A DNA stretch of 62,718 bases, counting the filler, from Stramenopiles sp. TOSAG23-3 (lineage: Eukaryota), in NCBI GenBank assembly GCA_900128585.1. It is 14 parts of 14 records of this genome, joined end to end, with 100 filler letters (N's around TTAATTAATTAA, not from the genome) between each part and the next. Parts side by side here need not be neighbours in the genome. Positions count along the whole stretch, not along the records: positions 58,344 to 62,718 come from LT643854.1; 13 more parts are not named here. The stretch is one strand, 5' to 3'. Under the pieces are notes generated by a model. The model did no database searches. It was given only the letters and a program-made list of their open reading frames with translations, and was not told the DNA's origin. Position 1 is the stretch's first letter; every line of letters begins with the position of its first letter. Shown in pieces: positions 58,841 to 61,336 of this stretch. Position numbers and translations under genes: made by a program.

Positions 58841-61336
58841 ATGGATCTTCCAGACTCCATTGCGGACAAGTTTACCGCCGACGAGATACGGGAATACGTC
58901 GAACAGTTCAAGGAAGTCGACGACGACGGGAGTGGCTTTTTGGACCCCGAAGAGATAGGGCAGTTGCTCAAGAGCCTTGGAAACGACAAATGGGACGACG
59001 ACGAGTACATCAAACAGCTCATCGAGGCCGTCGACGAGGACAACGACGGGCAGGTGAACATGGAAGAGTTCTTTCTCATGATGGACGGCGCGACGAGCGA
59101 CCTGTCCGGCCTCGTGGCGAAGCAGGTCGCGACCAACGCACAGGCCCACGATAGGAACGTCGCGAAGAAGAAACGAAAGAAGAGCCTGTCCGCCCGCATG
59201 TTCAAAACCGCCGAGGGGGAACTCTCCAAGGGCGACCGGACCATCACCCTGAACGCGAGCGCCATGGACTCGAGCGCGATGGCCCTGGCGTCCACCTTTG
59301 ACAAAGAGACGACCGTGTCGTACGCGGAGAAGAACGGGCACGAAGAATTGTACAGAAAGGACCATACCGAGCCCTTCGAGCAGCGGCACCTCCGGGTCTA
59401 CCTCATGGACGGAGACTTCTTTGAAATTCTGCTCACGGAGAAGAGCAAAGTCAAGCACGCCATGGTCCAGCTGAAAAACCAGATGGACCTGAAGCACGAC
59501 AGCGACATGGCCATTTACGTCATGTACAACGGCCAGCTCCAGCAGGCCCTGGAAGACGAGGAAGAGCTGTTCGGCCTTCTGGACTCCTTGGAGCCCGGGA
59601 GACATGACCTCGTCTACCGCCGCCGCACGTACTTGCCCTGGAGCCCGTTGAACTCGGAGGCCCGGGACGCCATCGACGTTGACAACGGGGCCCACCGCAT
59701 CTCGTTCGTCGAGGCCCAGAAGCGCTTCCTGGGGTCCGACTACCCCACCAAGCTTGGCGAGGCCGTCGAGCTGGCGGCCATCCTGGCCTCCTGCGCCCAG
59801 GAGGACCCCAACGAGACCTTCATTTTCAACAACTTGGCGTCCTTCCTCCCGAACGCGATCCGGAACGGGGCCGTGGGGGACCAGAAGACCCACTTGGCCC
59901 ACCGCATCTACATGCAAGGGAAGCGGAAGGATTTCTACGGGGGATTTTCCGCCATTGAGATCGAGCGAAGTTTCTTGGAAAAGTGTGCCCAGTACTACTC
60001 GGAAATGTACGGCGACACCTTCTTCCACTGCAAGGTCGTCGAGCGCGACCCCGGCAGCGACGTGACCACGGAGCACATCCAAAAGCAGCCCAAGGTCGTG
60101 TGCCACGTCGGGATCGGCCACGAGGGCATCCACAAAGTCTTCCCCGATGGCCGTGTCGGCCACATTTCCTTCACGGACATCGTCCGCTGGTTGGTCCCCT
60201 CCGGCCAGGACATTTTTGCCGTGTGGACGGAAGACGAGGTCACGTTCATGTTCACCGACAAGTGCGAGGAGATCCAGGGCGTCCTGAACCGGTACATTCG
60301 GGAGTTCTTAGCCGCCCGGGACACCCCAGGGAAAATGGCCTACCCCGTCCGGGTCATTACGGAAGAGGACATTCGGGGCACGTTCGACGAGTTCGATGCG
60401 GACGGTGGCGGCACGCTGGACCAGTCCGAGATTGCCGAGTTCGTGGCGACGTTCGGTATGACCCTGTCCACCAAGGAGAAAGACGAGATGTTCGAGATGA
60501 TCGACCAGAACGGCGATGGGGAAATCCAGTTCGAGGAGTTCTTGCCGTGGTGGAAGACAAGGGAAGAAGCGGACGTCCAAGCGCGCGACCCGGACGCCCC
60601 CGCCGCCTCTGACGACGGGCACTTGTCCATTTTAGACTCGGAAGTCCGAAAGAAGAAGAAGGAAGGCGAGCACCTGGAAGCCTGCGCTGCCCGGCTCCTC
60701 AAGGACAGGTTCACGACCTTCAAAGGCATCCTGCTCGGCTCCAGCAACGTTGGGAAGACAAACCTGGTCTACCGGCTGGCGGGGAAAAACTTCAGCGAAA
60801 CCCACAATCCTACTCTGGAGACGGAGTACCACACGGTTGCCCTGAAAATCGAACACGAGGAGGATGTTCGATGGATCAAGGTGGAAGTGTGGGATACCGC
60901 AGGCCAAGAGAAGTACAACGCCTTGATGAAGTCCTACTACCGCGGCGCGAAGGCGGGGGCCGCCGTGCTCGTGTACGACGTTAACGAAGAAAAGAGTCTA
61001 AAGGACATCGAGAGGCTTTGGCTCCCCAACTTGTTGAAGCAAACCCCGGCGGGCGACACGCACCTCATCCTTGTTGCAAACAAGTGCGACACTCTCGAGG
61101 AGGACATCTCAGCCGGGGAAGAGTTCGCGTCCGATCAGTACGATGAGATCCATGCGGACTGCGTGAGGGCGAGTGCTAAGAATGACAAAGGCGTGCGGGA
61201 AGCGTTCGCGTCCGTGTTCTCTGAGGTGTACGGGTACGTGAAGTCGGAGCAAGAAAAGGGCGTGCAGGTTAAGTTCAACGAAATCAAATTGGGCGCCCTG
61301 GCGGAGGCGAAGAAGAGTGGTGGCGGCTGCTGCTAA
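58841..61336 (+). CDS. Large Rab-like GTPase: EF-hand pair + FERM domain + EF-hand pair + Rab domain with C-terminal CC
   Basis: DDDGSGFLD/DEDNDGQVN; FERM (LRVYLMDG...LVYRRRTY...YP...AVELAA...YGDTFF...VGIGHEGI...ISFTDIVRW); DADGGGTLD/DQNGDGEIQ; GSSNVGKT, WDTAGQE, YYRGA, NKCD, SAK, GGGCC*. Confidence 0.9.
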   Translation: MDLPDSIADKFTADEIREYVEQFKEVDDDGSGFLDPEEIGQLLKSLGNDKWDDDEYIKQLIEAVDEDNDGQVNMEEFFLMMDGATSDLSGLVAKQVATNAQAHDRNVAKKKRKKSLSARMFKTAEGELSKGDRTITLNASAMDSSAMALASTFDKETTVSYAEKNGHEELYRKDHTEPFEQRHLRVYLMDGDFFEILLTEKSKVKHAMVQLKNQMDLKHDSDMAIYVMYNGQLQQALEDEEELFGLLDSLEPGRHDLVYRRRTYLPWSPLNSEARDAIDVDNGAHRISFVEAQKRFLGSDYPTKLGEAVELAAILASCAQEDPNETFIFNNLASFLPNAIRNGAVGDQKTHLAHRIYMQGKRKDFYGGFSAIEIERSFLEKCAQYYSEMYGDTFFHCKVVERDPGSDVTTEHIQKQPKVVCHVGIGHEGIHKVFPDGRVGHISFTDIVRWLVPSGQDIFAVWTEDEVTFMFTDKCEEIQGVLNRYIREFLAARDTPGKMAYPVRVITEEDIRGTFDEFDADGGGTLDQSEIAEFVATFGMTLSTKEKDEMFEMIDQNGDGEIQFEEFLPWWKTREEADVQARDPDAPAASDDGHLSILDSEVRKKKKEGEHLEACAARLLKDRFTTFKGILLGSSNVGKTNLVYRLAGKNFSETHNPTLETEYHTVALKIEHEEDVRWIKVEVWDTAGQEKYNALMKSYYRGAKAGAAVLVYDVNEEKSLKDIERLWLPNLLKQTPAGDTHLILVANKCDTLEEDISAGEEFASDQYDEIHADCVRASAKNDKGVREAFASVFSEVYGYVKSEQEKGVQVKFNEIKLGALAEAKKSGGGCC

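Follow-up and report, generated by a model that had tools for sequence, protein, structure and literature searches.

In the genome assembly of Stramenopiles sp. TOSAG23-3 (GCA_900128585.1), we analyzed a stretch of 62,718 nt, hereafter called the window, and found in it a gene whose product carries, on one chain, a canonical EF-hand pair, a basic linker, a FERM domain, a second canonical EF-hand pair, a conserved helix and a Rab GTPase domain with a Cys-Cys (CC) end. The complete coding sequence of this EF-FERM-EF-Rab gene lies at 58841..61336 on the plus strand (831 codons plus stop), is free of introns and encodes the protein that we refer to as P0001. With few exceptions, a Rab is a small switch of one domain that recruits its effectors as separate proteins. 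We propose that P0001 works as a Ca2+-gated Rab with a built-in FERM adaptor, a reading to which we assign a probability of about 0.55, this figure including the secure anatomical part.

The open frame runs from 58817 to 61336 (+) and comprises 839 aa when counted from an upstream TTG. Its first ATG, at 58841, gives the 831-aa protein ending in GGGCC, and the N termini of the orthologues align from this methionine. An intron-free open reading frame (ORF) of 831 aa had been claimed in a preliminary description of the window, and it was borne out by the ORF listing and the translation. The G+C content of the frame is 55 to 66%, versus 21 to 27% in the flanks, and the G+C content at third codon positions (GC3) is uniformly high over all nine segments of the gene (0.77 to 0.90).

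We searched for relatives of P0001 in a word-indexed collection of 5.8 billion proteins. Three full-length orthologues were recovered at 100% coverage, P0002 (867 aa, 57% identity), P0003 (860 aa, 58%) and P0004 (840 aa, 49%), all sharing the domain order of P0001; P0005 is a cut copy of an orthologue. Searching with the Rab part retrieved nine shorter proteins with 52 to 58% identity. Five of these Rab-bearing fragments were scanned with Pfam: P0041, P0042 and P0047 begin inside the second EF-hand pair and continue into the Rab domain, and P0048 and P0050 gave GTPase matches only, with no EF-hand match.

The region between the two EF-hand pairs is, by family profiles and a predicted model, a complete three-lobed FERM domain. 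Scanning 1.84 billion cluster representatives with residues 170-505 by HMMER yielded 35 proteins at E ≤ 0.001 (16 at ≤ 1e-10), the query included. Pfam was run on 25 of the 34 others, the remaining nine being fragments of at most 241 aa; 16 of the 25 passed the cut-off of FERM_M (PF00373) with 25 to 53 bits, and many also matched RA_2 (F1) and IRS-type PTB or KRIT1_FRMD8_FERM_C (F3). The homology of the relatives to the FERM domain of P0001 reached phmmer E values of 1e-16 to 1e-30; P0029 (NB-ARC/TPR) was rejected as a spurious repeat match. For P0001 itself, FERM_M scored 14.4 bits (E 0.051, residues 286-395; cut-off 23.8) and RA_2 25.3 bits (residues 183-245; cut-off 27). Two of the four close orthologues, P0002 (25.0 bits) and P0003 (27.5 bits), pass FERM_M, and the two that fail it, P0004 (21.7 bits) and P0005 (21.8 bits), pass RA_2 with 30.0 and 30.2 bits, respectively. 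Against the PDB, a 20-sequence family profile (alignment A2) matched the KRIT1 FERM domain over all three lobes (E 6.8e-24), the talin head (7.7e-21), the FERM domains of myosin VII/X (about 1e-13) and ERM proteins (about 1e-8). A profile made of orthologues only aligned with relatives combining FERM and WW domains over 302 columns (hhalign probability 100%, E 7.9e-41).

AlphaFold2 run on A2 returned a model with a predicted local distance difference test score (pLDDT) of 89.9 and a predicted template modelling score (pTM) of 0.86, in which the folded FERM domain spans residues ~181-494 (59381-60322). The preliminary description had placed it at about 59385-60310, within about 12 nt of these limits. 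The model has the three lobes in FERM order and as one unit: a ubiquitin-like F1 with the succession beta-beta-alpha-beta-beta-alpha-beta, a helical F2, and a PH/PTB-like F3 formed by a seven-stranded sandwich capped by a long helix. All on the plus strand, F1 (ubiquitin/RA-like, residues ~181-261) corresponds to 59381..59623, as delimited by RA_2, the model and the FERM structure matches; F2 (all-helical, residues ~269-389) to 59645..60007, from FERM_M and the model helices; and F3 (residues ~393-494) to 60017..60322, from the strands and helix of the model. Foldseek found 209 PDB matches to the model at E ≤ 0.001, and the best 50 of these 209 were all FERM domains, the first with E 4.1e-16 and a template modelling (TM) score of 0.72.

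We then compared conservation along the four full-length sequences (49 to 60% overall identity). Invariant columns make up 50 to 52% of F2, F3 and the Rab domain, but only 31% (25 of 81) of F1, the FERM lobe with the weakest conservation. Within F3, strand beta5 (residues 447-451) is invariant in five of five columns and the C-terminal helix (475-494) in 16 of 20. In FERM and PTB domains, beta5 and the capping helix form the usual peptide groove of the F3 lobe.

The Rab-family GTPase domain occupies residues 626-796 (60716..61228, +; Pfam Ras 117.3 bits at 628-796). Its motifs are G1 GSSNVGKT (residues 633-640, 60737-60760), switch I PTLETEY (657-663, 60809-60829, including Thr658), G3 WDTAGQE (684-690, 60890-60910), G4 NKCD (747-750, 61079-61090) and G5 SAK (778-780, 61172-61180), all on the plus strand. 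The protein end GGGCC contains the C-terminal Cys-Cys (residues 830-831, 61328..61333, +), a Rab-type double geranylgeranylation motif. These motifs match what the preliminary description had reported, namely intact G1, G3, G4 and G5 boxes, a GGGCC end and a PTLETEY switch I. The CC end is retained in P0002 to P0004 and in five of eight fragments. In an alignment of 11 to 12 family sequences (A3), G1, Thr658, DTAGQE, NKCD and SAK are invariant or at least 90% conserved, and the PTLETEY switch I is unusual yet invariant in the family.

Comparison with solved structures placed this domain among the Rabs. With P0001 as the query, the best 60 of 1294 PDB matches were all Rab/Ypt/Sec4 proteins, the first being Rab1A (85 bits) with aligned GGGCC tails; with the 12-sequence profile A3, the same was true of the best 60 of 1114 matches, and the scores were 115 bits for Ypt31/Rab11, 110 for Rab8/Rab10 and 100 for Rab1. 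When the switch I-II fragment was searched alone, the named rows among the best 60 of 265 matches were all Rab/Ypt (Rab4, Rab11, Rab2, Rab5 and Rab14), two further rows being called "GTP-binding protein". The odd switch I does not turn the domain into a Ras or Rap. Of the Rab family motifs, RabF4 (YYRGA) and RabF5 (LVYDV) are present and RabF2 partly so (KVEVW), and the two motifs of the switch regions, RabF1 (here LETEY) and RabF3 (here KYNALM), are diverged. Relative to solved Rabs, there is a 2-residue insertion after YYRGA. Among the matches listed, ordinary small Rabs were at best 37 to 39% identical to the Rab part of P0001. A FastTree phylogeny was computed from the family, the remaining listed matches of the Rab-part search and P0006, with rows having at least 60 gaps dropped and no labelled references; the nine family rows grouped together with a support of 1.0, and the stem of this clade measured 0.94 substitutions per site. 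In the Protein Atlas, the Rab part fell into generic Ras-family clusters (0.96) without subfamily signal.

The first EF-hand pair covers residues 14-85 (58880..59095, +; Pfam EF-hand_7, EF-hand_6 and EH), with loops at 27-38 and 65-76. The second covers residues 508-572 (60362..60556, +; best EF-hand_7 stretch 508-570), with loops at 519-530 and 555-566. On P0001, EF-hand_7 (82.3 bits, two stretches), EF-hand_1 (four stretches) and EF-hand_6 scored above their cut-offs. All four loops in each of P0001 to P0004 follow the canonical 12-residue pattern (Asp at position 1, Gly at 6 and Glu at 12), and the pairs are predicted to bind Ca2+. The Pfam matches and the canonical loops thus support the two EF-hand pairs of the preliminary description. 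The linker between the first pair and the FERM domain contains a conserved basic/hydrophobic motif (residues 108-122, 59162..59206, +) with 8 of 15 columns invariant in the four full-length sequences and is otherwise variable, with 13 of 95 columns invariant over its whole length. This motif is a candidate lipid-binding or EF-hand-binding helix. Between the second EF-hand pair and the Rab domain, 23 of 53 columns (residues 573-625) are invariant in the four sequences; this part includes a conserved acidic/helical segment before the G domain (residues ~585-625, 60593..60715, +), which is also retained in the C-terminal fragments P0041 to P0048.

The stretch 58700-61500 was found in 20 of 24 listed public runs (17 studies), which are marine or seawater metagenomes together with six runs recorded as RNA. 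We placed the contigs of four runs on 58350-61700: X2 (DNA), X4 (guessed to be RNA), and X15 and X16 (metatranscriptomes). None of the four runs showed a joint, and pieces from different runs overlap at every domain boundary: X2 record 18 spans 58477-59938 (upstream region, first EF-hand pair, F1 and F2), X15 record 3 spans 59870-60132, X4 record 24 spans 59919-61445 (F2, F3, second EF-hand pair, Rab domain and stop), X16 record 10 spans 60243-60581 and X15 record 6 spans 60514-60986. The RNA-labelled contigs extend over 58772..61445 (+; X4 records 22-24), which is roughly the mRNA span, assembled contigs showing presence and continuity, not transcript ends or strand. All pieces of X15 and X16 on the Rab gene lie inside 58856-61407, and the AT-rich upstream region 58350-58685 was covered by the DNA run X2 only. 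Contigs from DNA and RNA-labelled libraries thus cross every domain junction without a joint. The gene is real, expressed and single-exon, and comes from an uncultured marine protist. Six variant positions were observed, three of them synonymous. At 60760, a synonymous A>G change (Thr640) was present in all four runs, the base in the window being the minority form among these samples.

In the mechanism that we propose, the doubly prenylated G domain would insert into a vesicle or organelle membrane under the control of its GTP/GDP state, the GTP form marking that membrane. The near-invariant groove between beta5 and the helix of F3 would be the main site at which the FERM domain holds its ligand, a membrane protein's cytoplasmic tail and perhaps also phosphoinositides. 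By this binding, the membrane marked by the Rab would be tied to another membrane or to the cortex of the cell, and the EF-hand pairs on either side of the FERM domain would make the tie dependent on cytosolic Ca2+. Because the G domain most resembles Rab11-, Rab4- and Rab2-type Rabs, a recycling or exocytic route would be our best guess. Ca2+ sensing, a link between membrane and cortex and a role in phagocytosis, as put forward in the preliminary description, are suggested by the domain content.

Several observations weigh against this reading. P0001 alone scores below the cut-off for both FERM_M and RA_2, and a single-sequence PDB search with its middle region gave six matches at E ≤ 10, none of them a FERM domain; LIMS1, RecA fusions and VapC were rejected as chance matches. 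The FERM call therefore rests on the profiles and the predicted model. The preliminary description would have taken failure of the middle region against FERM models as a refutation; P0001 does fail the Pfam FERM_M model, but the evidence of orthologues, profiles and fold outweighs this failure. On the Rab side, Rab11 leads Rab8 and Rab1 by only 5 to 15 bits. Switch I and the post-G3 segment deviate from the motifs usual in Rabs, and it is uncertain whether REP and GDI would recognize the domain, on which prenylation and cycling depend. The AlphaFold2 model of the full-length protein (5-row alignment A1) was unusable, with a pLDDT of 43.2, a pTM of 0.22 and even the Rab domain poorly modelled, and such a model yields no information on domain packing. 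Finally, the RNA evidence consists of assembled contigs of RNA-labelled libraries, in which DNA can be present.

An alternative that we consider unlikely is that the FERM domain serves the G domain as an effector in cis. The RA-like F1 would bind the GTP-loaded G domain of the same protein, GTP loading would open or close the FERM domain, the EF-hands would add a Ca2+ input, and the chief role of the protein would lie in signalling or in switching between conformations rather than in conferring vesicle identity. The nearest solved FERM relatives, KRIT1 and talin, point in this direction, as does the match of F1 to the Pfam "RA like domain". The switch I is invariant in the family and departs from the usual Rab motif; we take PTLETEY to resemble the Ras/Rap type more. 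A precedent exists in the GTP-dependent binding of Rap1 by the F1 lobe of KRIT1, as reported in PMC3461514. However, the switch I-II fragment alone still matches Rabs best, F1 is the lobe with the fewest invariant columns, and paralogues without a GTPase retain the EF-FERM-EF cassette, which argues that the FERM domain has a job independent of the G domain. The Arg that KRIT1 needs for Rap1 binding presumably corresponds here to a non-basic, non-conserved position (by an inferred numbering offset), which also speaks against binding in cis. A complex prediction of the FERM domain (A2) with the Rab domain (A3) scored 0.00 with its alignments unused and counts neither way. A bolder proposal, which we put forward only tentatively and regard as rather doubtful, is that protists belonging to neither the animals, the fungi nor the amoebae built a Ca2+-gated "large Rab" of their own by fusing a Rab11-like switch to a FERM domain that is its own effector, so that GTP and Ca2+ would jointly, in cis, open the F3 groove for a membrane-protein tail.

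It is similarly improbable, in our view, that the protein is a FERM scaffold whose Rab domain has lost normal cycling and effector recruitment and acts only as a lipidated anchor, holding a Ca2+-regulated FERM adaptor on the membrane. In favor of such an anchor, the two Rab-family motifs in the switch regions have diverged, the P-loop GSSNVGKT contains an unusual Asn, and the EF-FERM-EF cassette is common to paralogues lacking a GTPase, such as P0007. Yet 11 to 12 family sequences show little or no variation in any of the nucleotide-binding boxes, in the Thr of switch I or in the catalytic Gln of DTAGQE, which argues for a working switch, and with 88 of 171 columns invariant, conservation of the G domain equals that of F2 and F3. 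We give very little credence to an artefact, whether a chimeric assembly or a gene model that runs separate EF-hand, FERM and Rab genes together: the window itself concatenates short contigs and the Logan contigs break at several points within the gene, but the whole gene lies within the single piece 58344-62718 in one unbroken frame, overlapping pieces from independent DNA and RNA-library runs bridge each domain boundary and show neither joints nor foreign ends there, three full-length orthologues on other contigs have the identical domain order, and GC3 is high in each of the nine gene segments, so that a chimeric join is excluded for practical purposes.

Turning back to the Ca2+-gated Rab with a built-in FERM adaptor, we asked how its parts are distributed in the wider family. 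No Ras-family domain was found in the 25 scanned FERM relatives. P0007, an environmental protein of 2500 aa, carries an EF-FERM-EF cassette at residues 5-601, a second FERM-EF unit reaching to 1008, ankyrin repeats at 1112-1191 and a third FERM-EF unit at 1313-1680, followed by a long tail of about 800 aa, and has no GTPase. Its identity to P0001 is 45 to 47% over whole EF-FERM-EF cassettes. P0281 (867 aa), a member of the orthologue cluster, and P0007 each lie on a contig of 14306 bp and may be neighbours. An environmental FERM subfamily combines an RA-like F1, FERM_M and a PTB-like F3 with three to four WW domains or with WW and SAM domains; the members with FERM+WW or FERM+WW+SAM are P0012, P0013, P0015, P0016, P0021, P0024, P0027, P0031, P0034 and P0035. 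This FERM+WW group matched P0001 with a phmmer E of 1e-16 and an hhalign E of 8e-41, and other FERM relatives carry EF-hands. Because of the architectures of P0007 and these other relatives, we take the conserved unit to be the FERM domain plus the EF-hand pair that follows it. Judging from the sequences, the Rab domain is an addition found only in the P0001-P0004 group.

The family members come from environmental assemblies or from one EukProt entry, and bear automatic names such as "small GTP-binding protein", "Ras-related protein Rab-11A" and "calmodulin". A scan of metagenome loci returned four: L001 holds the N terminus of an orthologue, cut by the contig end, next to a RING-finger gene that is not related to it; L003 codes for an ordinary Rab of 195 aa; and L002 and L004 are short. 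No usable synteny was found among these four loci.

To place the host, we used the ribosomal protein gene RPL4 (41003-42139), which lies on another piece of the window. Its product is 78 to 94% identical to environmental relatives and 59 to 62% identical to proteins of oomycetes, a labyrinthulomycete, a raphidophyte and ochrophytes, with green algae close at 57 to 60%. In a FastTree phylogeny, it belongs to a 14-tip clade inside a 64-tip group that holds 10 of 10 named stramenopiles and excludes all 11 rows named as green lineage or dinoflagellate, although its support is only 0.46. The host is probably an uncultured marine stramenopile, as far as this protein indicates.

The 14 pieces of the window are short contigs that were concatenated in order of size, their lengths decreasing steadily from 4398 to 4375 bp. 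The pieces are joined by 13 spacers (4399-4498, 8896-8995 and so on to 58244-58343), each made of 44 N, the 12-base six-frame-stop word TTAATTAATTAA and another 44 N. Gene order across the spacers is therefore meaningless, and ORFs entering a spacer are cut (e.g., 57627-58295). In 200-bp windows, the G+C content ranges from 0.17-0.25 up to 0.53-0.66, with the same two-level pattern in all 14 pieces, which is consistent with a single genome. Single uninterrupted housekeeping ORFs on other pieces include RPL4, eIF3L/Paf67 (43364-44866) and KRR1 (51490-52695), along with an SF1-like gene (49343-50497). These single-ORF housekeeping genes and the coding G+C content of 50 to 60%, versus about 20% in intergenic DNA, suggest an intron-poor and compact genome. 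No Rfam families were found in the window.

The piece that contains the Rab gene entirely is the last of the 14 (58344..62718, 4375 bp). The sole true neighbour of the gene on this piece is a cyclin-like gene at 61583-62503 (-; Pfam Cyclin_N 46.9 bits), which is convergent with it and lies 246 bp from its stop; record 13 of the RNA-library run X16 covers the cyclin-like gene from 61411 onward. An antisense ORF of 449 aa (58814-60163, -) overlaps the Rab gene; its existence is probably a side effect of the very high GC3 in the sense frame. On a separate piece, the gene 55423-56553 (+) encodes a 376-aa protein of several EF-hand pairs (EF-hand_7 119.5 bits); its place on another piece rules it out as a neighbour, and its resemblance to the Rab protein goes no further than that of EF-hands in general (27 to 31%). 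The rest of the window contained no paralogue of either P0001 or P0007, the only matches being weak EF-hand ones at 55732-56046.

P0001 offers a natural test case of a hard-wired Rab-effector-sensor unit, with a full FERM domain and four canonical Ca2+ loops on one chain, and Ca2+-regulated Rabs seem to have been invented here a second time, independently. If a large Rab with its effector in cis proved true, one polypeptide would combine tasks that are normally split among a Rab, an adaptor and a Ca2+ sensor, for instance in membrane capture or recycling during prey uptake, and a diversified FERM toolkit (EF-FERM-EF arrays, FERM+WW and FERM+SAM) would exist where FERM proteins were thought to be rare. 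For the evolution of FERM proteins, the environmental relatives amount to a multi-architecture FERM subfamily in marine sequences of probable stramenopile origin. The organism, given the 20 of 24 listed runs that contain its gene, is common in the sea and may matter for marine microbial grazers.

Among known systems, the closest in layout are the animal large Rabs Rab44, Rab45/RASEF and Rab46/CRACR2A, which are described as combining EF-hands, a coiled coil and a Rab domain (PMC8303950). They resemble P0001 in having N-terminal EF-hands and a C-terminal prenylated Rab on one chain (PMC8303950, PMC7645795). In the animal proteins, however, a coiled coil stands between the EF-hands and the Rab domain, whereas P0001 has a FERM domain there, plus a second EF-hand pair. 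No long coiled coil was seen in P0001, whose linkers were not put through a coiled-coil predictor. In CRACR2a and Rab45, the coiled coil can serve as a dynein adaptor (PMC6504896); we rejected a CRACR2a-like dynein-adaptor mechanism for P0001, the coiled coil that it uses being replaced by the FERM domain. PMC3425129 assigns Rab44 and Rab45 to duplications within the Rab8 group in metazoans and counts them among the only three Rabs that carry a further domain, whereas the G domain of P0001 best matches Rab11, Rab4 and Rab2 types and its host is a probable stramenopile. The word FERM does not occur in the main text of the large-Rab review (PMC8303950) or of Klopper 2012 (PMC3425129), in agreement with the contrast to FERM-less animal large Rabs drawn in the preliminary description. 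We found no description of a FERM+Rab architecture in the literature, although the supplementary Rab catalogues of PMC3425129 and PMC3192815 could still list one, and the EF/FERM/EF/Rab combination was described nowhere in the literature searched, which covered no domain-architecture database. The preliminary description had also claimed independent evolution. Because of the probable stramenopile host, the different middle domain and the Rab11/Rab4/Rab2-type matches of the G domain, an origin independent of the animal large Rabs is the most economical reading, which these three features favor but do not prove.

With Rab11/Ypt31-32, and also Rab4, Rab2 and Rab8, P0001 shares the G1 to G5 boxes, the WDTAGQE and YYRGA blocks and the CC-type end; it differs from Rab11/Ypt31-32 by its PTLETEY switch I, its long stem (0.94) and its 625-residue N-terminal extension. 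The nearest solved relatives of its FERM domain by sequence, KRIT1 and the talin head, are 17 to 21% identical to it. KRIT1 has Nudix and ankyrin domains and talin an F0 lobe and a rod, and neither has EF-hands or a GTPase in its chain; both bind the GTPase Rap1 in trans, whereas P0001 carries a GTPase in the same chain. The MyTH4-FERM regions of myosin VII/X are 12 to 16% identical, and P0001 has no MyTH4 domain or motor; in the myosin survey PMC3942036, a ciliate is the only bikont named as having MyTH4-FERM myosins. In the Protein Atlas, the cluster nearest to the whole of P0001 was Miro, with a score of 0.75 that is below evidence level and serves as a lead only. Miro likewise unites EF-hands and a Ras-superfamily G domain in one protein. 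However, in Miro two G domains flank the EF-hands and the anchor is a transmembrane one, while P0001 has a single Ras-family stretch, a FERM domain and, instead of a hydrophobic helix, a CC end.

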